In this document: positions 911 to 60,479 of the stretch, in pieces | Layout of the letters: every line of letters begins with the position of its first letter | Position numbering within the stretch: position 1 is the first letter of the stretch | Assembly (NCBI GenBank): GCA_964551475.1 | Contig: CAZKCI010000064.1 | Coordinates: forward strand, 19,643-83,642 | DNA: 64,000 nt | DNA from: an uncultured bacterium | GTDB taxonomy: Bacteria > Auribacterota > Erginobacteria > Erginobacterales > CAZKCI01 | Direction: 5' to 3' | Notes under the pieces: model-generated | Database searches by the model: none | What the model saw: the letters and a program-made list of their open reading frames with translations, nothing else | Told to the model about the DNA's origin: nothing | Made by a program: the position numbers and the translations under genes

Positions 911-967
911 AATTTCCGATTTCGGATTTCGGATTGCGGATTGCGGATTTGGCGGACTGAGTTTATA

Positions 968-2787: not shown

Positions 2788-2799
2788 GGAGGCCCGATA

Positions 2800-3212
2800 A
2801 CGGAAGGTAAATAGGCTAGGGTTAGGTGAATGGTTTGGTCATTGGGCAAGGGTTAGGTGCGGCCGGGTTCCACCGTTTACCTCACCTATTGACCAGACCA
2901 ATAACCTTGCCCTAACCCATTGACCGATTGGTTGACGGGTTAGGGTAAGGAAGTGGGTCTGGTAAATGGGTTAGGGTCAAGTGCGGCCTGGAGAACCGCC
3001 GGCCGGGCTGCACCATTGACCTTACCCATCGACCAGACCAATAACCTTGCCCTAACCCATTGACCGATTGGTTGACGGGTTAGGGTAAGGAAGTGGGTCT
3101 GGTAAATGGGTTAGGGTCAAGTGCGGCCTGGAGAACCGCCAGCCAGGCTGCACCATCGACCTTACCCATCGACCAGACCAATATCCTAACCCTAACCCAT
3201 CAACCCCATCCG
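2800..3212 (+). repeat. Three tandem copies of a ~125-bp MITE-like element with terminal inverted repeats (GGGTTAGGGTAAGGAAGTGGGTCTGGTAAATGGGTTAGGG … CCTTACCCATCGACCAGACCAATAACCTTGCCCTAACCC), joined by GATTGGTTGAC linkers
   Basis: Two near-identical ~150-bp direct repeats (approx 2893-3050 and 3043-3190), each carrying internal inverted arms, plus a more diverged copy at 2805-2935. The same element recurs at 6 other intergenic loci in the window. Confidence 0.8.
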
Positions 3213-3223
3213 CACCGCAACAA

Positions 3224-4213
3224 ATGAAGGAACAATCTCAAGATATTCTTCTGCAAGTCCGCGACCTCCGGAAGAGCTTCCCCCTTCGCCGGGGGCTCTT
3301 CTCCCGCCCGGCGGGGTCCGTCCGGGCGGTGGACGGGGTGAGCTTCGAGATCCCCCGCGGGACCACGCTCGGCCTGGTCGGCGAGACCGGCTGCGGGAAG
3401 ACCACGCTCGGCCGCCTCATCCTCCGTCTCCTCCCCGCCGACGGGGGAGAGGTTTTCTTCCGGGGCTTGAACGTGCTCGCCCTTCCCCCCGCCCGGCTGC
3501 GGGAGCTGCGCCAGGAGATGCAGATCGTTTTCCAGGATCCTTTCGGATCGCTGAACCCCCGGATGAGAGTCGGCGCGATCGTGGGGGAGGGGCTCCGAAT
3601 CTTTCGGCGGGGGACCGGACGGGAGATCGAGACGGAGACGGCCCGCCTCCTGGAGCGGGTGGGCCTCAACGCCTCCGCGGCGAAACTCTATCCCCACGAG
3701 TTTTCGGGCGGCCAGCGCCAGCGGATCGGGATCGCCCGGGCGATCGCGCTCCGGCCCGCGTTCATCGTCTGCGACGAGCCGGTCTCTTCGCTGGACGTCT
3801 CCATCCAGGCCCAGATCCTGAACCTTCTCGCCGACTTGCAGGAGGAGATGGGGCTCGCCTATCTCTTCATCGCCCATGATCTCCGCGTGGTCGAGCACAT
3901 CTCCCATCGGGTGGCGGTGATGTACCGGGGGCGGCTCATGGAGACGGCGAAACGGGAGGATCTTTACGCCGATCCCCGCCACCCCTACACCCGTCTCCTT
4001 CTGGATTCCATCCCCGATCTCGATCCCGCCGCCCCCCGCCGCGATCCGCCCGCCGTTGCGCCCGAAGAGGCGGCTGGCGACGGCTGCCCGTTCTTCCCGC
4101 GCTGCGGGGAGAGGAGCGAGGAATGCGGTACGGTAGTTCCGGAGCTTCAGGAGATTTTTCCCGGGCATCAGGTGGCGTGTATAAGGCAGGGAAGGCTGAA
4201 GACCGAAGGCTGA
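3224..4213 (+). CDS. ABC transporter ATP-binding protein, OppF/DppF family
   Basis: Walker A GETGCGKT, signature FSGGQRQR, Walker B FIVCDEPVSSLD and a C-terminal Cys-containing extension (CPFFPRC). Confidence 0.85.
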   Translation: MKEQSQDILLQVRDLRKSFPLRRGLFSRPAGSVRAVDGVSFEIPRGTTLGLVGETGCGKTTLGRLILRLLPADGGEVFFRGLNVLALPPARLRELRQEMQIVFQDPFGSLNPRMRVGAIVGEGLRIFRRGTGREIETETARLLERVGLNASAAKLYPHEFSGGQRQRIGIARAIALRPAFIVCDEPVSSLDVSIQAQILNLLADLQEEMGLAYLFIAHDLRVVEHISHRVAVMYRGRLMETAKREDLYADPRHPYTRLLLDSIPDLDPAAPRRDPPAVAPEEAAGDGCPFFPRCGERSEECGTVVPELQEIFPGHQVACIRQGRLKTEG

Positions 4214-4370
4214 AGGCTGAAGGCCGAAGACTGAAGGCTGAAGGCTGAAGGAAAAACCGCCTGAACCCTGAACCCTGAACCCTGAACCCTGAACCCTGAA
4301 CCCTGAACCCTGAACCCCGTAGCCAGCCACTTGACAATTGATAAATGACCAATGACGAATGACCAATGAT
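4189..4370. repeat. Three consecutive short tandem arrays: (GCTGAAGG)x~7 overlapping the oppF 3' end, (CCTGAAC)x8, and (AATGACC)x3
   Basis: Read directly: …gaaggctgaagaccgaaggctgaaggctgaaggccgaagactgaaggctgaaggctgaagg…cctgaaccctgaaccctgaaccctgaaccctgaaccctgaaccctgaacccc…aatgaccaatgacgaatgaccaatga. A TTGACA hexamer sits at ~4331. Confidence 0.85.
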
Positions 4371-10266: not shown

Positions 10267-10398
10267 TGGGTAAGGGTGAGGAAGTGGGTCTGGTCAATGG
10301 GTTGGGGTTAAGTGCAGCCCGGCGAATCGCAAGACAGGCCAGACCATTAACCTTACCCATCTTCCAGACCAATAACCTCACCCTTACCTATTGACCAT
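10267..10398 (+). repeat. MITE-like palindromic element, single copy, beginning 1 bp after the upstream stop codon
   Basis: tGGGTAAGGGTGAGGAAGTGGGTCTGGTCAATGGGTTGGGGTTAAGTGCAGCCC…AGACCATTAACCTTACCCATCTTCCAGACCAATAACCTCACCCTTACC. The arms are reverse-complementary. Confidence 0.8.
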
Positions 10399-10407
10399 CG
10401 GTTAACA

Positions 10408-10776: not shown

Positions 10777-10780
10777 AACG

Positions 10781-11020
10781 ATTGGTCAATGGGTTAGGGT
10801 TAGGAAGTGGGTCTGGTGGATGGGTTAGGGCAAGGTGTCGCCAAGCCAGGTTGCACCATTAACTTTACCCATATACCAGACCAATATCCTTACCCTTACC
10901 CATTAACCGATTGGGTGACGGGTTAGGGTTAGGTCAACGGTTTGGTCCTTGGGCTGGGGTTAGGTCGGTTGCACCATTGACCTTGCCCATTTACCGGACC
11001 AATAACCTTGCCCTGATCCA
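10781..11020 (+). repeat. Two tandem MITE-like elements between the receiver and histidine kinase genes
   Basis: Copy 1 ~10785-10908 (GGGTTAGGGTTAGGAAGTGGGTCTGGTGGATGGGTTAGGG…TACCAGACCAATATCCTTACCCTTACCC). The linker is gattgggtgac. Copy 2 ~10920-11020. Confidence 0.8.
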
Positions 11021-12979
11021 TTGCCCGTTGTTATGGATACCGACTCCACTCCAAACGCTCTGGCCGACGAGCTGCTCTCCCGTCTCCCCGACGGGGTGAT
11101 GTGGCTGGACGGCGAGGGGCGTTTCCGCCATCTCAACCCCGCCGCTCGGGCGCTGCTTCTCGCCCCTTCCCGGCGCTGGCTGGGAAGGTTCTTGACGGTG
11201 TATCTTGCCCCCGCGTCGGCGCCGGCGGTGGCGACCGCTCTCGGCGAGATGGCCGCCGCGGGCCGCGGCGAAGGCCGATGGGAGGTGGCCGCCGCCCGGC
11301 GTCCGGAGCGGAAGCTCGAGCTGGCTCTCTCCGCCGTTCGGGACAAGGGTACTCTCTCCGGGTTCTCCGGGACCCTCCGGGACGTCACCCGGGAGAGAGA
11401 GGAGACGGCCCGCCTGCGGGAGGTCTCCGCGGTTCTCCAGAGCCTCCAGGAGACGGTGATCATCACCGACCGCCGCCGCCGGATCATCTATGTCAATCCC
11501 GCCGCCGCCGGGATGCTGGGCTATGCCGCGGAAGAGATGCTGGGGCGCGCTGCCGCCTTTTACTTCGAGGGGATCCCGGGCAACCCTCCCCATCTGGCCG
11601 ATTTCATCTCCAGCCATGTCGGCGAGAGAGGATGGGAGGGAGATGTGTACAACCGCCGCAAGGATGGCCGGATCGTCCCGGTTCATTTATCCCTGACCAA
11701 GGTGGTGGCGGAGGGGGGGGAGACGGTGGGCTATGTCGGGGTCTCCCATGACATCAGCCGGATCAAGGAGCTGGAGGCCGAGCGCCGGCTGCGCATGGAG
11801 AGGGTGGAGGAGGAGGTGCGCAAACGGACCGAGGAGCTGCAGGGGATCAGCCGGGACATGGCCGGCCAGCGGAGCCAGCTCGACGCCATCCTCTCCAACA
11901 TTGCCGAGGGGGTGGTGGTGGAGAACGAGCGCTACGAAGTGGAGTTCATGAACCAGACGCTGATCCGGGGTTTCGGGAACCAGGTGGGGCGGAAATGCTT
12001 TGAGGCCTTCATCGGCCGAGCCACACCCTGCCCGGTCTGCGGGGTGAAAGCGGTGATCGGGGAAGGGAAGGACTACTTCCGCTATGAATCGGTGGACAAG
12101 CAGGGCCGCCGCTACGAGCTGGTCGCCTCGCCCCTGGTGAAGCCCGACGGCCGCCGCCTGGTCATCGAGATCATCCGGGACATCACCGAGCGCAAGAAGA
12201 CCGAGGAGCTGATCCGCCGCCAGAACCTCCAGCTGACCGAGGTCAACCAGGAGCTGAAGAAGCTGCTCCGGGTCAAAAGCGATTTTCTTTCCCTGATCTC
12301 TCACGAGCTCAAGTCTCCCCTGACCGTGATCCAGGGCTATCTCATCCTGCTCACGAAAAAGCAGATGGGGGCCTTGAACCCGGAGCAGGAGGAGGGGCTG
12401 TCCGTGGCCGCCCTGGAGGCCGACCACCTGAACTATCTGATCAACCAGATCCTCGACCTCTCCCAGCTCGACTCCGGAAAGCTGGAGCTCATACCGGAGA
12501 CGATCGACGTCGCGGAGCTGATCGGGCATTGCCTGGCCGCGCTCCGCCCCGCGGCGAAGAAGAATCGCGTCTCCTTCCGAACGCGCATCGGCCCCGCCGC
12601 CCGCCGGGCGCTGGCCGACGGGAACAAGATCAAGCAGGTTTTCCGGAACGTCCTGGAGAACGCCCTCAAGTTCAGCCCCCCCGGAGGGACCATCTCCATC
12701 CGGGGGGAGAGCAAGGAGGGGCGGGTCACCTATTCCGTCAGCGACCAGGGCATCGGCATCCCCGAGCACGAACTGGAAAAGGTCTTCGAGCGCTTCCACC
12801 AGGTGAAGAACCCCCTGACCATGAAATTCGGGGGCATGGGACTGGGCCTGGCCATCAGCAAGAACATCATGGAGCTCCACGGGGGAAGGATCTGGGCGGA
12901 GTCCTCTCCGGGGAAGGGGACCACGATATTTTTCAGCTTGCCCCGGGAAAAGGCGGGCGGGAAGGGGGAGGAACGATGA
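11021..12979 (+). CDS. PAS/PAC-domain sensor histidine kinase
   Basis: TTG start per the ORF track (an alternative ATG lies 12 bp downstream). PAS modules (…IITDRRRRIIYVNPAAAGMLGY…), a coiled-coil, and the HisKA H-box LISHELKSPLTVIQGY. HATPase_c N/G boxes are present (…NVLENALKFS…, GGMGLGLAISKNIMELHGGRIWAESSPGKGTTIFF). Confidence 0.85.
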   Translation: MPVVMDTDSTPNALADELLSRLPDGVMWLDGEGRFRHLNPAARALLLAPSRRWLGRFLTVYLAPASAPAVATALGEMAAAGRGEGRWEVAAARRPERKLELALSAVRDKGTLSGFSGTLRDVTREREETARLREVSAVLQSLQETVIITDRRRRIIYVNPAAAGMLGYAAEEMLGRAAAFYFEGIPGNPPHLADFISSHVGERGWEGDVYNRRKDGRIVPVHLSLTKVVAEGGETVGYVGVSHDISRIKELEAERRLRMERVEEEVRKRTEELQGISRDMAGQRSQLDAILSNIAEGVVVENERYEVEFMNQTLIRGFGNQVGRKCFEAFIGRATPCPVCGVKAVIGEGKDYFRYESVDKQGRRYELVASPLVKPDGRRLVIEIIRDITERKKTEELIRRQNLQLTEVNQELKKLLRVKSDFLSLISHELKSPLTVIQGYLILLTKKQMGALNPEQEEGLSVAALEADHLNYLINQILDLSQLDSGKLELIPETIDVAELIGHCLAALRPAAKKNRVSFRTRIGPAARRALADGNKIKQVFRNVLENALKFSPPGGTISIRGESKEGRVTYSVSDQGIGIPEHELEKVFERFHQVKNPLTMKFGGMGLGLAISKNIMELHGGRIWAESSPGKGTTIFFSLPREKAGGKGEER

Positions 12980-13803: not shown

Positions 13804-13805
13804 AA

Positions 13806-14040
13806 AGAAAATGGGTTAGGGTTAGGAAGTGGGTCTGGTAAATGGGTTAGGGTTAAGTGCGGCCTGACAAAACCGCCAGCCGGGCTACACCATTGACCGA
13901 TTGGTTAATGGGTTGTTGATGGGTTGGGGTTAGGAAGTGGGTCTGGTAAATGGGTTAGGGCAAGGTGTCGCCAAGCCAGGCTGCACCATTAACTTTACCC
14001 ATTTACCAGACCAATATCCTTACCCTTACCCATTGACTAG
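13806..14040 (+). repeat. MITE-like elements (one truncated copy plus one full copy) directly after the HEAT-lipoprotein stop
   Basis: aTGGGTTAGGGTTAGGAAGTGGGTCTGGTAAATGGGTTAGGGTTAAGTGCGGCC…; second copy …GGGTTGGGGTTAGGAAGTGGGTCTGGTAAATGGGTTAGGGCAAGG…TTTACCCATTTACCAGACCAATATCCTTACCCTTACCC. Confidence 0.8.
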
Positions 14041-14055
14041 TTATTGAGAGTGATC

Positions 14056-16170
14056 ATGCGACCTATCGGCCGAACATTGCTGTATATCGTGTTTCCCTTG
14101 TGTCTCTTCTCCCTCTCCTGCCAGGACCGGGCGGGGCGGGCCTTCAGCCGGGCCCTGACGCTGGCCCGGCAGAAGCGGTACGAGCAGGCGGTGGGGGAGA
14201 TGCGGCGTCTCCTCCAGATCGCCCCCCGATCCTCGCGCGCCCACAACGCCCTGGGGCAGATCTACCGGGTCCAGAACCTCTACTCGCAGGCGATCGAGGA
14301 GCTGGAGAAGGCGATCGAAATCAGCCAGACCGATCCCATCCCCGCCTACAACCTGGCCGTCATCTACCAGGAGATGGAGGATTATCCCAAGGCCGATTCG
14401 TTTTTCCGGGAAGCCCTGCGCCGGGATTCCCGCTTCACCCCCGCCCTCTATCGCCAGGGGACGCTCTCTCTCGCCCGGGGGGACCTCGATCAGGCGAAGA
14501 AGCAGCTGATCGATTTCGTGGAACTGGAGCCGGGAAACGCCTTCGGCCACAACAATCTGGGCTGTCTCCTCTGGCGGCAGGGCGAAGCCGTCTCCGCCCG
14601 CGAATCGTTCCGGCGGGCGGTCGAGCTGGAGCCCGCCCTGGCCTCGGCCTGGTTCAACCTCGGTTTCGCCGCTCTCGATGCTTCCGATGGGAAGGAGGAG
14701 GGGAGCGCGGCACTGGAGAGATACCTCAAGCTTCGCCCGTTCGCCCTCGATCAGGATGCGGTGAGAAAATCGATCGAAAAGCCGTCCGCTCCGACCCCCG
14801 CGACGCCCTCCGCGGAGGCGGCGCTGGCCGCCGCCGTCCGCTGCGAGGCCGCCGGAGAGACCGCGAACGCGCGGGCGAAATACGGCGAGGCGATCGCTCT
14901 CGCTCCCGGATCGGGCGAGGCCCACTATCGGCTCGCCCGTCTCTATGACCGCGCCCTGGGCGAGAAAATGAAGGCGATCGAAGGGTATGAAAGGGCGCTG
15001 GATCTCTCTCCACGTTCCGCCTGGGCGGACGCGGCGATCGCGCGCCTCCAGTCTCTGCGCGGCGATATGGAGAAGCAGCTCCTGGCGAAAAAAGATCTCC
15101 CCCGCCCGCCGTCCGCGAGCCCCACTCCCTATTCCGCCCCCGCTCCCTCCGCTCCCGCGGGCCGAGCGGAGGATCTTTACCGGGCGGGATTGAAAGAGGA
15201 AGAGGCCCGGCGGACGGAACAGGCGGAGGCTTGCTACCGCCAAGCGCTGGCGGTCTCTCCCGATCACGCGCTCACCCTCTTCCATCTCGGCCGCCTGGCG
15301 GCAGCCTCCGGCCGCTATGAGGAGGCGCTCGATCTTCTGCGGAAGGCCCAAGCGATCGATGCCTCCCTCCCCGCCCGGGAGGAGCTCGGCTCGGTCTGCC
15401 TCAAGCTCGGAACCGCCGCCCTCTCCGACAAGGAATTCGACCGGGCCGTCGACTGGTATCGCCAGGCCGGGACCTACGGCAAGGTCCATGAAGCCCGGCA
15501 GGGACAGGGGACGGCCTTCCAGGCCGCCTACCGCGCCGAATTCGACCGGGGGAACTATTCCGCCGCCGCCGGTCATCTCCGCTCCGCCGTGGAGATCCGC
15601 CCGGACACGGCTTCGGACTGCCTGGCCCTGGGCGATCTCTACGCCCAGAAGCTCCGGCGGCCCGATGAGGCCCGACGCTATTATCAGAAGTATCTGGCCC
15701 TGATGCCTCGGGGGCCGGACGCCGACCGGGTGAGAGGATACGTCTCTCCCTCCGCCGCCCCGCCGCCGGCCGCCCGTCCTCCCGCCGCCCGTCCGGCCTC
15801 GTCCCCGCGCGCGCCTAAGCCGACGCAGGATCATTTCTCGCTGGGCGCCCGCTATCAGCAGCAGGGGAAAACAGCGGAGGCGGAGGAGGAGTATCTGATC
15901 GCGCTCCGGGAGAAGCCGTCCCTGTACCAGGCGCACTACAACCTGGGCGTGCTCTACAGCCAGACGGGCCGCGCGACCGACGCTCTCAACGCCTACAAGA
16001 GGGCGGCCCAGATCAATCCCAACTTCGCGCCGTCCCAGCTCGCCATCTTCAAGATGTACTACTTCCGTTTCGGGATGAAGAACCTGGCCCGTCCCTACGC
16101 CCAGAAATACATCCAGCTGGAGCCGAACTCCTCGGCGGCGCGGGAGCTGGAAGGATGGCTGAACAAGTGA
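14056..16170 (+). CDS. TPR-repeat protein (probable lipoprotein, ~704 aa)
   Basis: ATG 14056 (the track ORF starts at TTG 14044). N-terminal hydrophobic segment ending …LFSLSCQ. Many 34-aa TPR units (…AHNALGQIYRVQNLYSQAIEELEKAIE…), with Pro/Ala-rich linkers. Confidence 0.75.
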   Translation: MRPIGRTLLYIVFPLCLFSLSCQDRAGRAFSRALTLARQKRYEQAVGEMRRLLQIAPRSSRAHNALGQIYRVQNLYSQAIEELEKAIEISQTDPIPAYNLAVIYQEMEDYPKADSFFREALRRDSRFTPALYRQGTLSLARGDLDQAKKQLIDFVELEPGNAFGHNNLGCLLWRQGEAVSARESFRRAVELEPALASAWFNLGFAALDASDGKEEGSAALERYLKLRPFALDQDAVRKSIEKPSAPTPATPSAEAALAAAVRCEAAGETANARAKYGEAIALAPGSGEAHYRLARLYDRALGEKMKAIEGYERALDLSPRSAWADAAIARLQSLRGDMEKQLLAKKDLPRPPSASPTPYSAPAPSAPAGRAEDLYRAGLKEEEARRTEQAEACYRQALAVSPDHALTLFHLGRLAAASGRYEEALDLLRKAQAIDASLPAREELGSVCLKLGTAALSDKEFDRAVDWYRQAGTYGKVHEARQGQGTAFQAAYRAEFDRGNYSAAAGHLRSAVEIRPDTASDCLALGDLYAQKLRRPDEARRYYQKYLALMPRGPDADRVRGYVSPSAAPPPAARPPAARPASSPRAPKPTQDHFSLGARYQQQGKTAEAEEEYLIALREKPSLYQAHYNLGVLYSQTGRATDALNAYKRAAQINPNFAPSQLAIFKMYYFRFGMKNLARPYAQKYIQLEPNSSAARELEGWLNK

Positions 16171-16905: not shown

Positions 16906-17030
16906 CATGGACGAGATGGACGGAAGAATGGACGAGATAGACAAAAAACCGGATTAAGACTGTTTCTCCTCCCGTCCCCTGATCCCTACCCTCTATCCTC
17001 TACCATCTACCATCTACCCCCTACCCCCTA
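16906..17030. repeat. Tandem 9-mers (ATGGACGAG)x3 followed by 7-mers (CTACCMT)x~6
   Basis: …catggacgagatggacggaagaatggacgagata… and …ccctaccctctatcctctaccatctaccatctaccccctaccccctaa… read directly. Confidence 0.8.
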
Positions 17031-17565: not shown

Positions 17566-17692
17566 GAAAGAAAGGCTGAGGGCTGAAGGAAAAGCGGCGC
17601 GCATCTTGTGTCCGGCCTCTCTTATCGTGTATTGTATGGCCGGCAAGCCGGGCTGCGTTTGTCCAGGCTTTGTCCATATCGTCCATATCGAC
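17566..17692. repeat. Short tandem repeats in the secA upstream region: GCTGAGG/GCTGAAGG and (GTCCATATC)x2-GACCATGTC
   Basis: …aaaggctgagggctgaaggaaaag… and …tttgtccatatcgtccatatcgaccatgtcaa… These are the same CTGAAGG and CGTCCAT repeat families seen elsewhere in the window. Confidence 0.7.
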
Positions 17693-17693
17693 C

Positions 17694-20600
17694 ATGTCAA
17701 TACTGACCAAAATTTTTGGCACCAAGTTCGACCGCGACCGCAAGAAACTCCAGCCCCTGGTCGACGAGATCAACCGCCGGGAGGCGGAGTACCGCAACCT
17801 CTCCGAAGAGGCCTTCCGGTCCCTCTCCGCCGGCTTCCGGGAACGGCTCGCCCGGAAGATCGCCGAGCCGACCGCCGCCCTCGCCTCCGTCCGCTCCCGC
17901 CTGGCCTCGGAGCTTACGACCGGCGAGGAGGATGAGCTCAAGGCCGAGGAGAAGGACCTGATCAAGACCATCCGGGCGGCGGAGAAAGCGGAGCTGGAGG
18001 TCCTCCTCCCCGATGCCTTCGCCGCGGTGAAGAACGCCTGCCGGAGGCTCCTCAAGCAGACCTGGGATGTCTGCGGCCAGTCCCTGACCTGGGAGATGGT
18101 CCCCTTCGACGTCCAGATCATCGGGGGGATCGCCCTCCACCAGGGGCGGATCGCCGAGATGGCCACCGGCGAAGGCAAGACGCTGGTCGCCACCTTCCCC
18201 CTCTACCTGAACGCGCTCGCCGGCCACGGCGTCCACCTGGTCACCGTGAACGACTACCTGGCCCGGCGCGACCGGGAGTGGATGGGGCGGATCTTTGAAA
18301 GCCTGGGACTCAGCGTGGGCTGCATCCAGGTGGGGATGGAGCCCGCCGAGCGGTGCGCCGCCTACGCCTGCGACATCACCTACGGGACGAACAACGAGTT
18401 CGGTTTCGACTACCTCCGCGACAACATGGCGGTCCGCCCCGAAGACCAGGTGCAGCGGATCTACCTTCACCACAAGGCGGACACCGACGAGATCAAGCGC
18501 GGCCACTACTACGCGATCATCGACGAGGCGGATTCGATCCTGATCGACGAGGCGCGGACCCCGCTGATCATCTCCGGACCGGTGGCCCGGGACGAGTCCA
18601 CCCATCTCGTCTACAAGCGGGTGATGCCGCTGATGAAGGACCTCTCCCGGCGGCAGGCGCTCCTCTGCGCGCGGCTTTTGGCGGAGGGGAAGGCGGCCTG
18701 GGAGAAGGACGACGAGGAGACGGCCGCCCGCCGCTTCTACCAGGTGAAGAAAGGCCAGCCCAAGAACAAGCAGCTGATGAGCCTGATCGAGGACCCCGCC
18801 GCCCGGAGGCTGATCGAGCGGGCCGAGGTCGAGCTCGACGCCGTCTCTTCCCAGGCCCCCCGGGCCGAGGAGGGGCGGGCGATGCGCGAGGAGCTCTTCT
18901 ACACGCTCAACGAGCGCGCCCACGAGATCAACATCACCGACAAGGGCCATCTCGCCCTCTCTCCCCAGAACCCCGACGAGTACGTGGTCGAGAGCCAGCA
19001 GCAGGACTGGCTGAGCGAGCATCAGAAGGTGGAGTCCGACCCCTTGCTGAGCCGGGAGGAGAAGGTCCTCCGCCACAACGAGATCGTCCGGGAGGAGCAG
19101 GCCTTCAACCAGAAGATCGACAAGATCCACGCCGCCTTCACCTCCCTGCGCGCGCTCGACCTCTTCGAGAAGGACGTCGAGTACGTGATCCAGGACAACA
19201 AGGTGGTGATCGTGGACGAGTTCACCGGCCGCTTGATGCCCGGCCGCCGCTACAGCGACGGGCTCCACCAGGCCCTGGAGGCGAAGGAGGGGGTCTGGAT
19301 CGAGCATGAGACGCAGACGCTGGCCACGGTCACCATCCAGAACTACTTCCGGATGTACGAGAAGCTCGCCGGGATGACCGGGACGGCCGAGACCGAGGCG
19401 GTGGAGTTCGACAAGATCTACCACCTCGACGTGATGGTCATCCCCACCAACGAGCCGGTCCGGCGGACGAACTACCACGACCGGATCTACAAGACCAAGA
19501 ACGAGAAGTACCAGGCGGTGATCGCCGAGATCGCCGCCGGCTTCGAGAAGCAGCGGCCGGTGCTGGTGGGGACGGTCTCGGTCGACACCTCCGAGGTCCT
19601 GAGCCGCATGCTGAAGCGGCGCAAGATCCCCCACCAGGTCCTGAACGCCCGCTACCATCAGCAGGAGGCGGAGATCGTGACCCGGGCCGGCCAGGCCGGC
19701 GCGGTCACCATCGCCACCAACATGGCCGGGCGGGGGACCGACATCAAGCTCGGGGCGGGCGTGGTCCGCGCGGAGTGCCTGGAGACGCGGGGGCGGAACC
19801 GCCGCGCCGCCGGGGAGGCCTTCGCGGGCGAGCCCTGGTGCTGCGTCACCTGCCGCGTCTACGACAAATGCCGCCGGGGGTCGAAGGCGCTCTGCGGGAA
19901 GCCGGCCCAGATGTTCGCCTGCCGAAGCGAGGTCCCCTGCGGACTGCACATCGTCGGGACCGAACGGCACGAGGCGCGGCGGATCGACCGCCAGCTCCGC
20001 GGCCGCTGCGCCCGCCAGGGGGACCCCGGCGCCTCGCGCTTCTACCTCTCGCTCGAGGACGACCTGATGCGCCTTTTCGGCTCCGACCGGATCGCCGGGA
20101 TCATGGGGAAGATGGGGATCGAGGAGGGGGAGGAGATGACCCATCCGCTCCTCACCCGGGCGATCGAGACCGCCCAGAAACGGGTGGAGGGGCACAACTT
20201 CTCCATCCGCGAGCACATCCTCAAATACGACGACGTGATGAACAAGCAGCGGGAGGAGATCTACGCCTTCCGCACCAGCATCATCGACAGCCTGAACCCG
20301 CGCCGGGGGATCCTGGGGGTCATCGAGGAGGCGGTCCGGGAAAAGGTGGAGGAGTTCTGCCCGGAGAAGACGCCTCCGGAGGAGTGGAAGTGGTCGCGCC
20401 TCTCCCTCTGGCTCCAGTCGACCTTTCTCATCTCGCTCCCCGAGAAGTCCCCCCCGGAAGGGATCGCCGCCGCGGGGCTCACCGAGAAGATCATGGGACA
20501 GGTCTCCCGCTTCTACGAGCTCAAGGAGGTCTACGAGGGGAAGGAGAACATGCGGCGGCTCGAGAAGCTGGTGGTCTTGTCCGTGATCGACCGCCTCTGG

Positions 20601-21051: not shown

Positions 21052-21215
21052 AAACATTGGAGTACTGGAGTATTGGAGTAGTGGAGTGATGATAATCATG
21101 GAGTATTGGAGTAGTGGAGTGATGGAGTAATGGGGCAGACTGCCGTGCGGCTTTTTTCCAATACTCCAATACTCCATCACTCCATTACTCCATTGCTCCA
21201 TCACTCCAGTACTCA
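21052..21215 (+). repeat. Large inverted repeat built from 8-mer tandem units (GGAGTANT)x~9 … (ANTACTCC)x~7, with an embedded intrinsic-terminator-like centre (GGCAGACTGCC gtgcggc TTTTTT)
   Basis: Left arm ~21058-21132, centre 21133-21157, right arm 21158-21214. The arms are reverse complements at unit level. Confidence 0.85.
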
Positions 21216-22851: not shown

Positions 22852-24720
22852 TTGTCCAGCTACCGTCTCCGGCTCACGAATAAGATGATGAATGTTCGCG
22901 ATCATCTCTCGAGCCGCGCCTTTCGGGGGACGGCGCTCCTGCTTCTCGCCCTCCTCGCCGCGCTCGCCTATTCCTATCCCATCTTCCGCGACTTCGGCAA
23001 CTGGGGGATCCAGGACTGGGACCAGCACCTCTTCTACCACGCCGTCCCCCGCCACACGATTCTCCACTACCATGAGTTCCCGCTCTGGAACCCCTGGTAC
23101 TGCGGGGGGGCGCCTCTTCTCGCCAACCCGCAGTCCCGTTTCCTCTCCCCGACCTACCTCTGCGTCCTCCTCCTGGGCGCGGTGCGGGGGATCAAGGTCG
23201 AGATCCTCCTCCACCTGGTCGTCGGCCTGGTCGGGGCTTACCGCCTCGCCCGCTCCTTCCGGATGAGCCGCCCCGCCTCCGCCCTCACCGCTTCCCTCTT
23301 CGTTCTCAACAGCTCCTTCGCCCTCAACCTGACCGTGGGGATGACCTGGTTCCTCTCCGCCGCCTACATCCCCTGGGCTTTCCATTTTTATCTCAAAGCG
23401 ATGCGGGACCTGCGCTGGTCGGCCGCGAGCGGTGCCTGTCTGGCTATGGTTTTCCTGGGCGGGGGAATCTATCCCGTCGTGATCGCCGTTCTTTTTCTCT
23501 TCGTCTATGCACTCTTCGCCGTTCTCCTGGAGAAAAGGCGCTTCTCCCGCGCCGCGGCGGCCATTTTTCTCTCCATCGCTTTCGCCTTGTCGATCAGCGC
23601 CATCAAAGCCATCCCCGCCTGGATGTATCTGAAAGGACACCCCCGCCTGATCGACGACTACTCCGGCTACAGCCTCTCCTCGCTCGTCTTCTCCCTCTTC
23701 AGCCGCGATCAGCAACTGGGGGCGATCGAGAGCGCCCTCTCCACGTCCCGGACGGGATTTTTCGGCGGCGTCTCCTGGTTTATGGACGAGAACGGAATGT
23801 ACGTCGGGATCGTCGCCGCCCTCCTCTGCCTTCTCGGGATGATCTCCCGCTTCCGCCGCCGCCCGGCTCTCGCCCTCTGCCTGGTCCTCTCCCTCTGGCT
23901 CGCCTTCGGCTCCCGGGCGCCGTTGAGCCTTTGGAATCTCATCCATGAACTTCCGGTTTTCGCCTCGATGCGTGTGGCCCAGCGCTACCGGATCGTTTTT
24001 CTCCTCGCCTTCTCGCTCTTCGCCGGTTTCGGTCTCGACTCCCTGCTCGACCGTCTCCGCCGCCTCCGCCCGCGATTCCCCTCCGATCCCCTCGCCGCCG
24101 CCGCGGTCCTGGTGATCTCGGCCGACCTGATCCTGGTCTCCTCGCGGGTTTTCCGGGAAGCCTTCCCGATCCCTCCGCTCCCGGTTGGCCCTCCGGGCGC
24201 TTTTCGCCAGGTGGAATCATTCTCGTCTTACGGAAGAATCGGCTGGGTGGCGTACGCTTCGAATCCCCGGCACATATCCTGGGGCGGACTCTACCCGGCT
24301 TTTTTGAGCAACCTGGGAGTGATCAAGGCCTACGAGTCGGCCGAGGTGCCCAGGATGGCGATCCCGTCGGAGTGGCCGAGCTACCGGGGGGAGATATTCC
24401 TGGAGGGCACGGAAGGGAGCGCCACGCTCCAGCGTTGGACGCCCAACGCGCTGACGATCGAAACCGAGGCCGATCGTCCGGGCTATCTCATCGTCAACCA
24501 GAACTACGATCCCGGCTGGAAAATCGCCGGCGGCGGGACGGTGGAGAAGAGGAGGGGACTGATTGCGGTAAAAATACCTTTCCGCCGGGCCTCCGTGGCA
24601 TTATATTATCAGCCCCCCGGTTTTCGCCTCGGACTGGCCGTCTCGGCCGCCGGCTGCCTGCTGGCGGCCGCTGTTCTGCGCCGGACGATGCGTCTCCGGG
24701 GGAGGCAGGAAGAAAAATGA
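22852..24720 (+). CDS. Large polytopic membrane protein (~620 aa), candidate GT-C-fold glycosyltransferase (YfhO/ArnT-like)
   Basis: More than 10 predicted TM helices. A conserved-looking periplasmic loop (HEFPLWNPWYCGGAPLLANPQS). Family assignment is tentative. Confidence 0.45.
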   Translation: MSSYRLRLTNKMMNVRDHLSSRAFRGTALLLLALLAALAYSYPIFRDFGNWGIQDWDQHLFYHAVPRHTILHYHEFPLWNPWYCGGAPLLANPQSRFLSPTYLCVLLLGAVRGIKVEILLHLVVGLVGAYRLARSFRMSRPASALTASLFVLNSSFALNLTVGMTWFLSAAYIPWAFHFYLKAMRDLRWSAASGACLAMVFLGGGIYPVVIAVLFLFVYALFAVLLEKRRFSRAAAAIFLSIAFALSISAIKAIPAWMYLKGHPRLIDDYSGYSLSSLVFSLFSRDQQLGAIESALSTSRTGFFGGVSWFMDENGMYVGIVAALLCLLGMISRFRRRPALALCLVLSLWLAFGSRAPLSLWNLIHELPVFASMRVAQRYRIVFLLAFSLFAGFGLDSLLDRLRRLRPRFPSDPLAAAAVLVISADLILVSSRVFREAFPIPPLPVGPPGAFRQVESFSSYGRIGWVAYASNPRHISWGGLYPAFLSNLGVIKAYESAEVPRMAIPSEWPSYRGEIFLEGTEGSATLQRWTPNALTIETEADRPGYLIVNQNYDPGWKIAGGGTVEKRRGLIAVKIPFRRASVALYYQPPGFRLGLAVSAAGCLLAAAVLRRTMRLRGRQEEK

Positions 24721-25851
24721 ACGTGGAGATCACCGAAAGACACAAGACCCTCGCCTCCCGCTTCGCGGAGATGCGGGGGCATCTTTGACCTGGACGGCAA
24801 GCGGACCCGCCTGAAGGAACTGGAAACGGAGATGTCCCGCCCCGGTTTCTGGGACGAGGGGGAAAAGACCCAGAAGGCAATCGCCGAGCTCAAGGGGATC
24901 AAGGAGGTGCTCGATCCCTGGTCCGAACTGGAGAAAGATCTCGGGGAGCTTCCCGAACTTCTCGCTCTGGCCGCCGAAGACGCCAGCCTGGAGGGGGAGA
25001 TCGTCTCCGAGGTCGACCGGATCGGGGAGCGCCTGGACGCGCTCGAGCTTTCCGCGATGCTCTCCCGCCCGGAGGACGCCCAGGACGCGGTCTTCAGCCT
25101 CCAGGCCGGAGCGGGGGGGACCGAGTCCTGCGACTGGACCGAGATGCTCTGGCGGATGTACAGCCGCTGGTGCGAGAGGCGCGGCTACGACGTCGAGGTG
25201 GTGAACATCGCGCCGGGGGAAGAGGCGGGGATCCGGAATCTCACCGCCCTGATCAAGGGGCGTTTCGCCTACGGTTATCTCCAGGCCGAGCGGGGAGTCC
25301 ACCGGCTGGTGCGGATCTCCCCCTTCGATTCCAACCATCGCCGCCACACCTCCTTCGCGTCGGTCGACGTGGCCCCCGACGTGGAGGAGGAGATCGTGAT
25401 CGAGATCGAGGAGAAGGATCTGCGGATCGACACCTTCCGCGCCGGGGGCCATGGGGGCCAGCACGTCAACATGACCGACTCGGCCGTCCGGATCACCCAC
25501 CTGCCGACCGGGATCGTGGTCCAGTGCCAGAACGAGCGCAGCCAGCACAAGAATCGGGCGACGGCGATGAAGGTCCTCAAAGCCCGCCTCTACCAGCGGG
25601 AGCAGGACGAGCTCCGGAGGAAGGCGGTCAAGCATCACGAGGCGCAGAAGGAGATCGGCTTCGGTTCCCAGATCCGCTCCTACGTCTTTCATCCCTACAC
25701 CATGGCCAAGGATCACCGGACCGGCGTCACTACCGGCGACGTGAACCGGGTCATGGACGGGGACATCGACCGCTACATCAACGCGTTTTTAAAGCAGCAG
25801 ACGGGGAGGGGTTCTCCCGGGCCGGCTGCCGACGACGACATGGAGGTGTAA
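24717..25851 (+). CDS. prfB: Peptide chain release factor 2, expressed via programmed +1 ribosomal frameshift (join 24717..24785, 24787..25851)
   Basis: Frame-0 ORF MNVEITERHKTLASRFAEMRGHL ends at the in-frame UGA in gggggCAT CTT TGA C. The +1 frame continues DLDGKRTRLKELETEMSRPGFWDE… and carries the SPF (…RISPFDSNHRRHTSF…) and GGQ (…RAGGHGGQHVNMT…) motifs. Confidence 0.9.
24775..24789 (+). promoter_or_regulatory. RF2 autoregulatory +1 frameshift site: internal SD-like GGGGG, 3 nt, then CUU UGA C
   Basis: Matches the canonical prfB frameshift cassette (SD-like element, slippery CUU, weak UGA-C stop context). Confidence 0.85.
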
Positions 25852-25857: not shown

Positions 25858-25915
25858 TAAACCAAGAACCGCAAAAAGTGAACCGTGAACCGTGGAACCG
25901 TGAACCGTTGAACCA
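25858..25915 (+). repeat. Tandem 9-mers (GTGAACCGT-like)x~5 immediately after the prfB stop
   Basis: …aaccaagaaccgcaaaaagtgaaccgtgaaccgtggaaccgtgaaccgttgaaccaggttgg… This is the TGAACC repeat family. Confidence 0.75.
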
Positions 25916-25941: not shown

Positions 25942-26214
25942 ATGACTATCTATGTCGGCAATCTGCCCCGCGATATCAGCGAGGAGGAAGTCCGCCAGGC
26001 TTTCGCCGCATTCGGCGAAGTGACCGTGGTCCGCATGATCAAGGACAAAGTTACCGGCGAGGCGCGCGGCTTCGGCTTTGTGGAGATGCCCAACGCCGAG
26101 GAAGGCGCTTCCGCCGTCCGGGCGATGAACGGCAAGGAGCTCAAGGGCCGCACGCTGAACGTCAACGAGGCCCACGCCAAGCCCGAGGGCGGAAGAGGCC
26201 CGAGAAGAGAGTAG
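25942..26214 (+). CDS. RNA-binding protein with a single RRM domain
   Basis: RNP-2 IYVGNL and RNP-1 RGFGFVEM, with a Gly/Arg-rich tail. The ATG at 25942 lies inside track ORF 25918..26214. Confidence 0.85.
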   Translation: MTIYVGNLPRDISEEEVRQAFAAFGEVTVVRMIKDKVTGEARGFGFVEMPNAEEGASAVRAMNGKELKGRTLNVNEAHAKPEGGRGPRRE

Positions 26215-26220
26215 GCAGGT

Positions 26221-26288
26221 AAGGGTTAGGAAGTGGGTTTGGTCTATGGGTTACCAGACCCACTTCCTAACCCTGACCCATCGACCAG
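26221..26288 (+). repeat. Minimal MITE-like hairpin (20-bp arms GGTTAGGAAGTGGGTTTGGT / ACCAGACCCACTTCCTAACC) filling the RRM-lysS intergenic gap
   Basis: Near-perfect inverted repeat with a 9-nt loop. It has the same arm sequence as the larger elements and ends 6 bp before the lysS ATG. Confidence 0.8.
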
Positions 26289-26293
26289 TAGTT

Positions 26294-29040: not shown

Positions 29041-29045
29041 AAGAG

Positions 29046-29275
29046 TCAATGGGTTAGGGTTAGGAAGTGGGTCTGGTAAATAGGTTGGGGTTAGGTGTGT
29101 CATGGCAAAACGACTGACGGGCTACACCATTGACCGATTGGTTGACGGGTTAGGGTTAGGAAGTGGGTCTGGTAAATGGGTTGGGGTTAGGTGTGTCATG
29201 GCAAAACGACTGACGGGCTACACCATCTACCTTACCCATCGACCAAACCCACTTCCTTACCCTCACCCATTAACC
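29046..29275 (+). repeat. MITE-like elements (two copies, first lacking a right arm) between lolC/E and lolD
   Basis: …caatGGGTTAGGGTTAGGAAGTGGGTCTGGTAAATAGGTTGGGGTTAGGTGTG…; the second copy ends …ATCTACCTTACCCATCGACCAAACCCACTTCCTTACCCTCACCC. The internal spurious ORFs (MAKRLTGYTI…) are repeat-encoded. Confidence 0.8.
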
Positions 29276-29285
29276 CTGTTTGACT

Positions 29286-29999: not shown

Positions 30000-30066
30000 C
30001 GTTGGCGATGGAACCGATAACGTGGTATAATACACGATCGGAATGGCCCGAAAGCGAGGTAAAGCA

Positions 30067-30972: not shown

Positions 30973-31245
30973 CGGGTTAGGGTTAGGAAGTGGGTCTGGT
31001 AAATGGGTTAGGGTTAAGTGCGGCATGGCGAAACCGCCAGCCGTGCCACACCATCTACCTTACCCATCGACCAAACCCACTTCCTTACCCTCACCCATTG
31101 ACCGATTGGTTGACGGGTTAGGGTTAGGAAGTGGGTCTGGTAAATGGGTTAGGGTTAAGTTCGGCATGGCAAAACGGCTGACGGGCTACACCATTAACCT
31201 TACCCATTTACCAGACCATTATCCTGACCTTTACCTATAGACCAT
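30962..31245 (+). repeat. Two tandem MITE-like elements between ilvE and mcsA; the element/linker supplies the ilvE stop codon
   Basis: ctgattggtTGAcGGGTTAGGGTTAGGAAGTGGGTCTGGTAAATGGGTTAGGGTTAAGTGCGGC…ATCTACCTTACCCATCGACCAAACCCACTTCCTTACCCTCACCC cattgaccgattggttgac GGGTTAGGG… (second copy). Confidence 0.85.
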
Positions 31246-31249
31246 CTTT

Positions 31250-37398: not shown

Positions 37399-37547
37399 GG
37401 TTCAACGGATCAAGGGTTCAGCGGTTCAGAGGTTCACGGTTCAACGGTTAGATAACACAACCGCTGAACCGCTGAACCGTGAACCGTTGAACCGTGAACC
37501 GCTGAACCGCTGAACCGTGAACCGCTGAACCGTTGAACCCTGAACCC
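37399..37547 (+). repeat. ~150-nt inverted repeat made of 8-9-mer microsatellite units: (GGTTCANNG)x6 - loop agataacacaa - (CNNTGAACC)x~11, followed by a T-rich tract
   Basis: It begins 1 bp after the TPR-gene stop and ends ~20 nt before the proS ATG. The arms were read directly. Confidence 0.85.
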
Positions 37548-39335: not shown

Positions 39336-39360
39336 CCCTGAACCCTGAACCCTGAACCCC
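39336..39360 (+). repeat. (CCCTGAA)x3 heptamer array
   Basis: gccctgaaccctgaaccctgaacccc; the same unit as the 4261-4318 array. Confidence 0.7.
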
Positions 39361-42796: not shown

Positions 42797-43010
42797 TTCA
42801 CTTCCGGGGCGCCGAGAAGAAGACGGCCGCGGAGGCGGCAGGGCCCGGGGCAGGGACGGCGGGGATAACCGGCCGGGATGAAGGGCGCCCTCCGAATCCA
42901 CACGAAATGGAGGAGAACCTGATTTTCCAGGCCTGTCCATAGCGTCCATCCAGTCCCTCCCGTCCATGGCGTCCCGACCCTCGCGGTTCAGTCGGCCGGT
43001 GATTCCGGCC

Positions 43011-46747: not shown

Positions 46748-47146
46748 ATGAAGACGCATCGGCTCGCCCGGATCGAGGAGCAGGTCAAGCGGATCATCGG
46801 GGAGATTCTCTCCGCCGGGGCCAAGGATCCCCGGATCGGTCTCGCCAGCGTGACCCGGGTCTCGGTCAGCCCCGATCTCCAGCAGGCCAAGGTTTTCATC
46901 AGCGCCTACGGCAGCGAGGAGGAGAAGAGGAAGACCTTCGCAGGCCTGCAGAGCGCCCGCTCCTATATCCAGCGCGAGCTCGGCTCCCAGGTCAGCTACC
47001 GCAATACGCCGGTGATCAGCTTCCACGAGGACCTCGTCCTGGCCTACGGGGCCCGGATCGACGAGATCCTCCTGGAGATCAAGAAAAAGGAAGGCGAGTC
47101 TTCCTATCCTCCATCCTCTACCCTCCATCCTCCCGAGAAGCCATGA
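46748..47146 (+). CDS. rbfA: Ribosome-binding factor A
   Basis: MKTHRLARIEEQVKRIIGEIL… KH-like RbfA signature (…RIGLASVTRVSVSPDLQQAKVFIS…). Confidence 0.85.
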   Translation: MKTHRLARIEEQVKRIIGEILSAGAKDPRIGLASVTRVSVSPDLQQAKVFISAYGSEEEKRKTFAGLQSARSYIQRELGSQVSYRNTPVISFHEDLVLAYGARIDEILLEIKKKEGESSYPPSSTLHPPEKP

Positions 47147-48861: not shown

Positions 48862-48997
48862 CGGGTTCAGCGGTTCACGGTTCAGCGGTTCAGCGGTTCA
48901 ACGGTTGGAAAAATAACCGTGAACCGCTGAACCGTGAACCGCTGAACCTCTGAACCTCTGAACCGTTGAACCGTGAACCGTTGAACCTTTGAACCCT
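48862..48997 (+). repeat. ~135-nt inverted repeat of 8-9-mer units: (GGTTCANCG)x5 - loop aaaaataa - (CNNTGAACC)x~9
   Basis: It starts 2 bp after the truB stop and ends ~18 nt before the ribF ATG. It has the same architecture as 37399-37547. Confidence 0.85.
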
Positions 48998-55439: not shown

Positions 55440-55447
55440 AGATTTCC

Positions 55448-55677
55448 ACGAATTGACACGAATTTTCACGAATTAGGCTTGGCCCGGCTCGGCATTTTAA
55501 CCCGCGAATAACGCGCCTGCCCGCCGCAGCGCATAGCGCGGAGGCGGGAATAGCGCGCGAAGGGGTTCGATTTGAACGGTTTCAACGTCTTCAACGATTT
55601 CAACGGCCGTTCAGTCGGTCACGTGTAACGTGTAACGATTTCAACGACTGCAACGATTTTAACGTCTTCAACGCTTC
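55448..55677 (+). repeat. Composite repeat region upstream of rimO: (CACGAATT)x3, CGCGAATA/GCGCATAG/GGGAATAGCGCGCG motifs, then a ~10-unit 9-mer array (NNTTCAACG)
   Basis: …gatttccacgaattgacacgaattttcacgaatt… and …ggtttcaacgtcttcaacgatttcaacggccgttcagtcggtcacgtgtaacgtgtaacgatttcaacgactgcaacgattttaacgtcttcaacgcttc. Confidence 0.8.
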
Positions 55678-57029: not shown

Positions 57030-57056
57030 GCCCGGTCTGCGACCGGGCGTTTTTGT
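57030..57056 (+). terminator. Rho-independent terminator GCCCGGTC-tgc-GACCGGGC-GTTTTTGTTG after rimO
   Basis: 8-bp GC stem plus a U-tract, immediately after the rimO TAG. Confidence 0.7.
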
Positions 57057-60474: not shown

Positions 60475-60479
60475 AGATA

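Follow-up and report, generated by a model that had tools for sequence, protein, structure and literature searches.

Families of short-unit tandem arrays with conserved cores and variable linkers behind the stop codons of an uncultured Auribacterota-related bacterium

The subject of this work is a 64,000 nt stretch of DNA from an uncultured bacterium placed in the Auribacterota (assembly GCA_964551475.1, contig CAZKCI010000064.1, positions 19,643 to 83,642; hereafter the window) and the tandem arrays of short units that lie mainly between its genes. The window belongs to the 242 kb metagenome contig Ga0393266_0000007 of the Joint Genome Institute (JGI) and has a GC content of 64.6%. A codon-usage gene call, which matches the JGI calls for the parts fetched, gives 53 genes, all on the + strand, and the coding share of the bases is 87.9%. 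The gene content is of the housekeeping kind and includes an opp/dpp transporter, an H+-pyrophosphatase, secA, lnt, prfB, aspS, lolCDE-like genes, mcsB-clpC, proS, the series nusA-infB-rbfA-truB-ribF-rpsO-pnp, ftsK and rimO. A protein labelled Candidatus Auribacterota shares 66% identity with the proS product, and closer relatives reach 68-90%. The single-strand gene layout extends over the whole 64 kb without a clear GC skew, and there are few minus-strand genes in the flanking 8 kb on each side.

An initial annotation had listed eight loci with arrays of 7-9 nt units in this DNA and regarded them as characteristic of the genome. Both Tandem Repeats Finder (TRF) and the sequence itself confirm all eight at or near the places where they had been put. 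Two details need correction: the "GCTGAGG" array around 17575 consists of two copies only, and the array at 25858, described as a 9-mer, has a period of 7-8 nt. The list was also an understatement, as it missed the largest arrays (912-950, 21058-21214, 37399-37546 and 48864-48995) and a further one at 47106-47133. Under a fixed definition (TRF score ≥36, period 6-10, at least 3 copies), the window contains 21 arrays with 6-10 nt units, 17 of them intergenic and 4 coding; dinucleotide shuffles yield 0.03 and 0.30, respectively. Arrays take up 10.3% of the intergenic bases and 0.26% of the coding bases, which amounts to an approximately 40-fold enrichment in intergenic DNA, and a similar density in coding DNA was not seen. 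The array density is 3.3 per 10 kb, as compared with 0.42 per 10 kb in a control set of 80 proS neighbourhoods from other bacteria (proS identity ≤55%, among the matches listed). With an approximately 8-fold excess over the control genomes, the description as genome-characteristic is justified. The arrays were also said to be AT-richer than their surroundings, and most of the intergenic ones indeed have a GC content of 38-62%. That their number is unusual for a high-GC genome holds in one respect, since they are enriched even relative to the control loci with more than 60% GC (0.71 per 10 kb). Nevertheless, such abundance is not unprecedented, because the phenomenon is known from other high-GC genomes, that of Xanthomonas among them (PMC4692102). 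Head-to-tail units of 5-11 nt in tracts longer than composition predicts, over-represented relative to control loci and mainly intergenic, are the hallmarks of long simple sequence repeats (LSSRs), and all of these were found here. At the gathering threshold, Rfam gave no matches in the window.

The placement of the arrays is regular. They occupy the gaps between co-oriented genes, and sometimes they extend into the end of a gene and provide its stop codon. The first array of a spacer begins at -41 to +12 nt relative to the upstream stop codon, and the last one ends 6-36 nt before the next start, which leaves space for a Shine-Dalgarno sequence and little more. Among the divergent spacers inspected, one of six contained an array. 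Two forms can be distinguished, namely mirror-image pairs, in which an array, a loop and the reverse-complement array follow one another and which make up about a third of the arrays, and unpaired direct arrays. The initial annotation had overlooked both the pairing and the stop codons that arrays supply. The three paired loci (secA-lnt, TPR-proS and truB-ribF) have loops of 16-38 nt and predicted stem-loops of 35-60 bp, with complementarity between the arms at 49/58, 46/50 and 34/34 positions, respectively. The predicted folding energies of the paired spacers at 21051, 37399 and 48861 range from -88 to -144 kcal/mol, and their z values against shuffles are -7.9, -9.9 and -9.1; spacers with orphan arrays have z values near 0. 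A promoter scan returned no promoter-like match within the array-filled spacers, and a terminator scan reported none of the array hairpins as an intrinsic terminator. Canonical terminators were found elsewhere in the window (22795, 43098 and 57030), and in the relative L086 (3090-3201) seven consecutive T's come after a TGGAGTA hairpin. On the sense strand, C mostly exceeds G in the unpaired arrays, and there are 30 TGAACC dimers on this strand versus 7 on the antisense strand.

The locus that opened the list of the initial annotation (4189-4370) illustrates the unpaired form. Its three arrays, of CTGAAGG, CCTGAAC and AATGACC, are unrelated to one another. The first was claimed to overlap the last codons of oppF, and it does so: the stop codon TGA (4211-4213) lies inside the array, and the tail residues GRLKTEG are array-encoded, the conserved ATPase domain of the protein ending at about residue 323. 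The perfect identity of the copies in the second array (4260-4317) suggests recent expansion; on the minus strand, this array reads (GGGTTCA)n, i.e., G3N4. Rotated and complemented, the AATGACC unit gives the heptamer TTGGTCA, which we take to be STRR2 of cyanobacteria. A degenerate hairpin was considered for this spacer and rejected, since CTGAAGG and CCTGAAC are non-complementary even when G-U pairs are allowed (z=+0.7). The TTGACA at 4331-4336 was rejected as a promoter because it has no acceptable -10 partner.

The repeated unit consists of a conserved hexamer core (TGAACC, TGGAGT, GTCCAT, ACTGAT and others) and a variable linker of 1-3 nt, which together give periods of 7-9 nt. The core TGAACC is joined to the linkers G, C, GC, GT or TT (period 7 or 8), TGGAGT to AT, AC, AA, GA or AG (period 8), and GTCCAT to NNN (period 9). 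There are at least eight unrelated cores among the arrays. When the window and its relatives were pooled, non-consensus bases accounted for 2-5% of the core positions and non-modal bases for 40-48% of the linker positions (Fisher p = 3e-22, 1.6e-13 and 4e-16 for three large families), in a core-anchored test pooled across loci that somewhat inflates the contrast. The same contrast is visible by eye in individual arrays. On the sequence pattern, the conserved cores appear to imply some sequence-specific constraint, and a sequence-specific reader of the arrays is possible. TRF also found higher-order periods of 15, 23, 31 and 39 nt in the TGAACC arrays, which indicate that multi-unit blocks were duplicated. 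A G3 run is present only in the (CCCTGAA)n arrays at 4260-4317 and 39336-39359 (G3N4, minus strand) and in a separate class of large palindromes described below; TGGAGTA, GTCCAT, CTGAAGG, TTCAACG and the other units contain no G3 run and do not qualify as G-quadruplex sequences. A mini-ORF (open reading frame) in an ATGGAC array (MDEMDGRMDEIDKKPD, then a stop codon) was dropped, as it was without any support.

Relatives of the window were located by exact-protein look-ups. The closest one, L004 (GCA_964584165.1), is syntenic, has a proS product with 90% identity and reaches 6.9 arrays per 10 kb, with an array or hairpin in almost every spacer. L088 (proS 82% identical) and L085-L087 (68-72%, 55-57% GC) have fewer arrays of the same design. 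The initial annotation held that the unit families recur, and they do so both within the window and in related metagenome-assembled genomes (MAGs): a repeated 6-mer core is common to 13 of the 18 window arrays and arrays of the relatives (34 of 432 pairs), and no core is shared with the arrays of the 80 control loci (0 of 648 pairs). The divergence at four-fold degenerate sites is 25% for L004, 35% for L088 and 62% for L086, the last value being saturated (~55% is expected at saturation).

The content of orthologous spacers changes between related genomes. In the TPR-proS spacer, three genomes retain a GGTTCA hairpin that differs between them in its loop and in the number of units, and its arms have 6.5 and 11.5 units in the window versus 4.6 and 8.4 in L004. 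Between proS and btpA, the window carries CGCGGATT and CCCTGAA units, and L004 a TGGAGTA hairpin. Two spacers without arrays in the window are filled in L004. One of them, the ABC-aminotransferase spacer, has in L004 a GGTGTAA hairpin between the stop codon and a TGnTATAAT promoter-like site. This site (TTGGCG-18-TATAAT; extended -10, TGGTATAAT) is found upstream of the aminotransferase gene in both genomes and is conserved between them (window 30002-30031, L004 ~2712-2740). Given the different copy numbers in orthologous spacers and the identical copies at 4260-4317, the earlier suggestion that the arrays are slippage-prone is plausible. The loop GGTTGGAAAAA..TAACC is found both in the truB-ribF hairpin of the window and in the hairpin of the TPR-proS spacer in L088. 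Because different loci share loop sequence, the families behave as dispersed elements and not just as products of in situ slippage. In L004, the ABC ATPase (…KVSGVRCKV) and ProS (…NGVSE) have array sequence in place of their native C-terminus and stop codon. A gene for a four-helix-bundle protein (23S rRNA intervening sequence family, PF05635) carries an in-frame mirror pair of 9 nt ATGGAC/GTCCAT units in L088 (3150-3776, minus strand) and L004 (12829-13689, minus strand), which adds GRYGRNGRYG...SISSMGSISSI in the former and ~130 P/S-rich repeat residues in the latter; these insertions recall the in-frame Rickettsia palindromic elements. A nested element is present at L088 987-1310, where a duplication of ~30 nt flanks the inner element.

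A second assembly of the strain, L210 (JGI sample 3300037485), is 100% identical over 13 kb apart from one palindrome copy, and the four short arrays shared by the two assemblies have identical copy numbers. Two short-read contigs of the same strain from Logan (L002 and L003) are also identical, carry only proS and end inside the flanking repeats, upstream in the TGAACC array and downstream in the CGCGGATT-flanked hairpin. Since these contigs end inside arrays, the repeats evidently break short-read assemblies.

The same architecture is found in other bacteria. An array, a loop and the complementary array directly after stop codons were seen in the control loci L048, L008, L005 and L024, whose hosts are Planctomycetia, Syntrophaceae, Planctomycetota and Desulfobulbus MAGs; their units are CACAGATNAA, AGTGCTG, CTCGTA, and AAGGATG with GGAGTTAG. 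Some of these elements are compound, with several arrays mirrored in order. The paired-array architecture is thus not unique to the clade, and the particular core vocabulary is clade-typical. The arrays of the window are collected in Table 1, together with the large palindromes.

Table 1. Short-unit arrays and large palindromes of the window
Feature	Unit	Copies	Position	Strand	Remarks
Direct array	ATTTCGG/ATTGCGG	5.6	912-950	+	Begins 1 nt after stop, ends 17 nt before next start
Direct array	CTGAAGG	8.7	4191-4251	+	Covers last 7 oppF codons; no complementary partner
Direct array	CCTGAAC	8.3	4260-4317	+	Copies 100% identical; TGAACC core family
Direct array	AATGACC	3.7	4344-4369	+	Ends 16 nt upstream of next start codon
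Direct array	ATGGACGAG	3.7	16907-16942	+	Complement form of GTCCAT core family; begins 11 nt after stop
Direct array	CTACCMT	6.4	16986-17030	+	Ends 12 nt before next start codon
Direct array	GTCCATATC	2.7	17672-17695	+	Just upstream of, or at, secA start
5' hairpin arm	TGGAGTAN	9.4	21058-21133	+	Begins 7 nt past secA stop codon
3' hairpin arm	NTACTCCA	7.2	21157-21214	+	Reverse complement of TGGAGTAN arm; ends 35 nt before lnt start
Direct array	GTGAACC/GTTGAACC	5	25878-25914	+	Spacer between prfB and RRM-protein gene; TGAACC core family
5' hairpin arm	GGTTCANC	6.5	37399-37449	+	Begins at first base past TPR gene stop codon
3' hairpin arm	GNTGAACC	11.5	37459-37546	+	More copies than 5' arm; ends 21 nt before proS start
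Direct array	CCCTGAA	3.4	39336-39359	+	Ends 9 nt before next start; TGAACC core family
Direct array	GTCCATNNC	3.7	42935-42967	+	Long spacer upstream of nusA
Array	ATCCTCC/CTACCCT	4	47106-47133	+	Within last rbfA codons; encoded tail ...YPPSSTLHPPEKP, then stop
5' hairpin arm	GGTTCAGC	5.5	48864-48906	+	Begins 3 nt past truB stop codon
3' hairpin arm	AACCGCTG/AACCGTG	10.5	48915-48995	+	Ends ~20 nt before JGI-called ribF start
Direct array	CACGAATTNN	2.8	55447-55474	+	Begins 8 nt after stop codon
Two blocks	TTCAACGNN	~9-10 in total	55581-55673	+	Ends 6 nt before rimO start; no hairpin (z=+0.9)
Two arrays in series	CGCGAAT, then ACTGATY	3, then 3.4	57112-57175	+	Downstream of canonical terminator at 57030-57048
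Large palindrome			2788-3223
Large palindrome			10267-10407
Large palindrome			10777-11032
Large palindrome			13804-14076
Large palindrome			26215-26293
Large palindrome			29041-29285
Large palindrome			30973-31249

Intergenic repeats of this general kind have been described before. LSSRs with units of 5-11 nt, heptamers foremost, are over-represented in scattered prokaryotic genomes, and polymerase slippage is the proposed cause of the heptanucleotide excess (Mrazek, Guo and Shah 2007, as summarised in PMC4679880 and PMC4692102). To judge from those summaries, the arrays of the window resemble LSSRs in their tandem 7-9 nt units beyond chance, in their concentration in the intergenic DNA of particular genomes, including high-GC ones, and in the in-frame position of the 9 nt GTCCAT arrays in the relatives, since the units of LSSRs inside genes are multiples of three. 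They differ in the co-existence of several families, in the division into core and variable linker and in the many mirror pairs, and an Auribacterota-related lineage does not appear in the surveys as summarised there. In Xanthomonas, whose genome has 65% GC, the GGGAATC repeats lie between genes, are transcribed and differ in length from species to species; ~40% form convergent inverted pairs, and there is a strong bias to a position beside the stop codon or across it (Rehm et al. 2015, PMC4692102). GGGGAYT heptamer repeats of Nostoc are treated in the same paper. Common features are AT-richer heptamers in a high-GC host, a length that varies while the type is kept, and unit positions of which some are conserved and others free; the convergent inverted pairs (three loci) and the stop-codon placement (-41 to +12 nt) of the Xanthomonas repeats recur here as well. 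However, Xanthomonas has essentially one family, whose G3 tracts form G-quadruplexes, whereas the present arrays have at least eight cores, few of them with G3. In Geobacter metallireducens, the paired families GTTGCTYN, TCTCCGTS, MTYCTGA and TWGTTGAY (3-5 tandem units) lie on opposite strands at a variable distance and at many intergenic sites; they were interpreted as binding sites of putative global regulators, some of them with a link to insertion sequences (Aklujkar et al. 2009, PMC2700814). Several families of paired hepta- or octanucleotide arrays in one genome are thus a shared feature, but the arrays reported here are longer (up to 11 units) and adjoin stop codons. The TAACTGA repeats of Beggiatoaceae and the heptamer direct repeats of cyanobacteria are also intergenic (MacGregor 2015, PMC4679880). 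Unlike the present arrays, the TAACTGA repeats sit just upstream of start codons, are almost never inverted and occur in low-GC hosts (PMC4679880). The unit ACTGATY is one base off a rotation of TAACTGA.

Two further comparisons concern possible functions. The REPs (repetitive extragenic palindromic sequences) of E. coli are imperfect palindromes after stop codons in operons, and they are strain-variable, transcribed and able to stabilise the 3' ends of mRNA. The mirror pairs, like REPs, bacterial interspersed mosaic elements (BIMEs) and REPINs, are imperfect palindromes in the space after stop codons. REPs are, however, near-identical units of 20-40 nt mobilised by RAYT, whereas the arms of the pairs are tandem arrays of variable length, and arrays of the same family differ in unit number, linker order and loop, so near-identical 20-40 nt copies were not found among them. 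Neither RAYT nor another transposase was present among the 30 window proteins scanned. In relation to miniature transposable elements with inverted repeats (MITEs), the lengths are very variable and there is no consistent target-site duplication, the ~30 nt flanking duplication at L088 987-1310 being a single case. Omega repressor heptads, MetJ metboxes and the sites of TRAP (GAG/UAG with spacers) and HutP (UAG every 7 nt) all combine a conserved short core with a free spacer. The arrays share with the sites of such readers the short core, the free spacer, a 5-8 nt period and contiguous copies. They differ from those sites, which lie in leaders and promoters, in their many different cores and their position after genes, and no cognate protein was identified here. 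Overall, this is a known class of intergenic heptamer-type and paired repeats, now seen in a new lineage with an unusually rich set of families. A paper on Auribacterota genomes does not mention repeats.

The explanation that we prefer, tentatively and at somewhat under an even chance, is that the arrays are clade-specific families of repeat-built intergenic elements whose growth relies on slippage and fold-back; in transcripts they would be intercistronic or 3' structures, with a function that we infer. Arrays would grow and shrink by replication slippage, including that of multi-unit blocks, mirror pairs would arise by fold-back (template-switch) copying of one arm, and families would spread between spacers by some copying route. 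Because the arrays leave no room for promoters, they are probably transcribed as intercistronic or 3'-untranslated RNA. By analogy with REPs and BIMEs, the paired forms might act as a barrier to 3'-exonucleases, a partial termination site or a target of RNase III, and the unpaired C-over-G arrays might be unstructured tracts, possibly Rho-loading sites.

Several observations weigh against this explanation. The stems are not under clear compensatory RNA selection, because the excess of G-U over A-C mismatches is weak (38 vs 21, mostly from one locus) and transversion mismatches (50) are equally common; the asymmetry favours the sense strand, but weakly. The rule "G-rich arm first", followed by 27 of 30 hairpins, was considered as a transcription-linked polarity and rejected: a palindrome of the form U-loop-U' is identical on either strand, and since the polarity is the same on both strands, it is silent on the direction of transcription. 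The spacer behind oppF (4189-4370), where the repeats were initially noticed, folds into no hairpin. Since elements are present or absent at orthologous spacers of essential genes, any function must be dispensable locus by locus. The GGTTCA core is not unique to the clade, because more than 120 metagenome contigs with a GC content of 38-70% have arrays of it, most of them unpaired and 78% outside long ORFs, in a scan without taxonomy or a comparison heptamer that cannot show enrichment. To these points can be added the inflation of the core-linker contrast by the pooled test, and the fact that transcription and any RNA role are both inferred.

The alternative that comes closest is a neutral or selfish by-product, namely slippage-made LSSRs, with ~7 nt favoured, that are tolerated only in unconstrained DNA, do nothing for the cell and whose mirror pairs are accidental fold-back duplications. 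We regard it as unlikely, yet as a serious contender. It accounts for the strong exclusion of arrays from coding DNA, for their fast gain, loss and replacement at orthologous spacers, for gene ends eroded by arrays and for the perfect copies at 4260-4317 that suggest recent expansion. Block slippage would explain the higher-order periods of 15 and 23 nt, arrays are missing from the lower-GC, probably acquired region at 57-64 kb and from 8.5 kb beyond it, and the summary of Mrazek 2007 in PMC4679880 gives slippage as a published proposal for the heptanucleotide excess. However, pure slippage would homogenise whole units and give lineage-specific random units, whereas the cores are ~10-fold better conserved than the linkers, the same few cores persist in genomes with saturated synonymous sites and none is shared with arrays of the 80 control loci. 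The replacement of families at orthologous spacers, with presence in one genome and absence in another, could also be the trace of non-autonomous mobile elements of REPIN, PATE or MITE type, in which a dedicated transposase, with its gene at another place in the genome, would mobilise each core family in trans and the tandem cores, inverted at the two ends, would be transposase-binding sites. Copies at different loci share loop and outer-unit features, one insertion is nested with its ~30 nt flanking duplication, another lies in frame in the four-helix-bundle gene of L088 and L004, and the co-resident palindromes of 110-140 nt resemble a classical dispersed family (a 28-mer with 10 copies in one orientation). 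Yet the scan of 30 window proteins gave no transposase or RAYT, there are no consistent terminal inverted repeats or target-site duplications, many arrays are unpaired, and same-family copies vary in unit number, linker order and loop, unlike the products of recent transposition. Mobilisation of this kind is improbable. Nor do the arrays appear to be pieces of a single insertion sequence or MITE, as several unrelated unit families are present and the 30 scanned window proteins include no transposase.

Conserved hexamer cores with free linkers in direct and inverted arrangements could also form, in line with the protein-binding or architectural role suggested by the initial annotation, duplex-DNA binding sites for a small multimerising protein, either of the ribbon-helix-helix type, such as the omega repressor (7 bp heptads) or MetJ (8 bp metboxes), or nucleoid-associated. 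This core-and-linker grammar, direct and inverted, is that of omega-repressor heptads and metboxes, and in Geobacter, similar paired sites received an annotation as putative sites of global regulators (PMC2700814). But each of the at least eight unrelated cores would call for a protein of its own, and the genes beside the arrays include none for a candidate binding protein. Moreover, the arrays follow stop codons instead of marking promoters, with no promoter-like site in the array-filled spacers and a rare occurrence in divergent spacers (one of six inspected), and the sense-strand excess of TGAACC (30 vs 7) is unexpected for a duplex site, which makes this explanation highly improbable. The arrays were further proposed to be contingency tracts, in which a change of copy number switches neighbouring genes (phase variation). 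Tandem repeats are slippage-prone in principle, and the copy number differs between related species. Nevertheless, the arrays lie between the stop codon of a housekeeping gene and the next ribosome-binding site, outside 5' coding regions and -35/-10 spacers; their neighbours (oppF, secA, lnt, prfB, proS, truB, ribF, rimO and rbfA) belong to the core housekeeping set, not to the surface, host-interaction or restriction-modification genes with which such loci are associated; units of 7-8 nt at the 3' ends of genes cannot toggle the reading frame of the protein body; and the four short arrays shared by two independent assemblies of the strain are identical in copy number. The proposal is scarcely credible.

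A bolder idea is that the cores are a clade-wide recognition code read by one or more multimeric nucleic-acid-binding proteins that form rings or filaments, similar to TRAP, HutP, Rho or the omega repressor, or by a dedicated copying enzyme. It is decidedly improbable on present evidence. If it were true, the core arrays at stop codons would represent a previously unrecognised mode of post-gene control or of element propagation in Auribacterota-related bacteria, and analogous systems could exist in Planctomycetota, Syntrophia and Geobacter, whose loci share the architecture. Over the years, intergenic repeats of the heptamer class have come to notice in Burkholderia, Xanthomonas, cyanobacteria, Beggiatoaceae and Geobacter, and none has been given a function that is generally accepted. 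The window adds a dense, multi-family example from an uncultured PVC-related lineage and sharpens the question in three ways: cores are conserved and linkers free, cores outlast synonymous saturation, and arrays abut or overlap stop codons. The asymmetry between core and linker and the long-term persistence of the cores deserve further attention most. Proof of a reader protein or of a role at the RNA level would explain a widespread class of bacterial non-coding DNA. There is also a practical side, as the arrays distort gene calls, through extended ORFs and array-encoded C-termini, and break short-read assemblies.

Short-unit arrays are absent over ~15 kb of a lower-GC segment (55-62%; window 57200-64000 and L209 10700-20653). 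This segment contains arsR/arsP, thioredoxin/DsbD, BrnT and VapBC genes, and it fits a recently acquired region in which arrays are still to accumulate. The second class of repeats consists of imperfect palindromes of ~110-140 nt (GGGTTAGGGTTAGGAAGTGGGTCTGGTAAATGGGTTAGGG ... loop ... CCCTAACCC), often in tandem pairs. They begin 1-7 nt after stop codons, and their fold z values range from -4.7 to -14.9. All 10 copies of their G-rich 28-mer, whose telomere-like GGGTTAGGG runs have G-quadruplex potential, lie on the + strand, and one copy of the palindrome is found in L004 (3672-3793). With the near-identical copies that are typical of REPs (the 28-mer in ten copies), this class looks REPIN/BIME-like. 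The palindrome copy that distinguishes the two assemblies of the strain is an extra one of 140 nt in L210 (11197-11397, as compared with window 2860-3200), and it may be real copy-number variation or an assembly effect.

Other observations concern single genes and minor repeats. The gene for release factor 2, prfB (24718-25851), has a classical programmed +1 frameshift at 24783-24789: frame 0 terminates in ...AEMRGHL at CTT TGA C, with a Shine-Dalgarno-like GGGGG before it, and the +1 frame continues as DLDGKRTRLKELE... into the PCRF and RF-1 domains. Directly downstream of the GTGAACC array lies a gene for a 90-residue RNA-binding protein with an RRM domain (25942-26214). To our knowledge, RRM proteins are uncommon in bacteria outside cyanobacteria, and it would be pure speculation to name this one as a candidate reader of periodic RNA motifs. 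A small REP-like family, TGTGGGAGCGGC..CCGCCGCGAT, has four copies (window 57065-57275 and 59726), and a hairpin family, GGACAC(T)TT..GATCG..AAAGTGTCC, has three (42760, 57433 and 57557).

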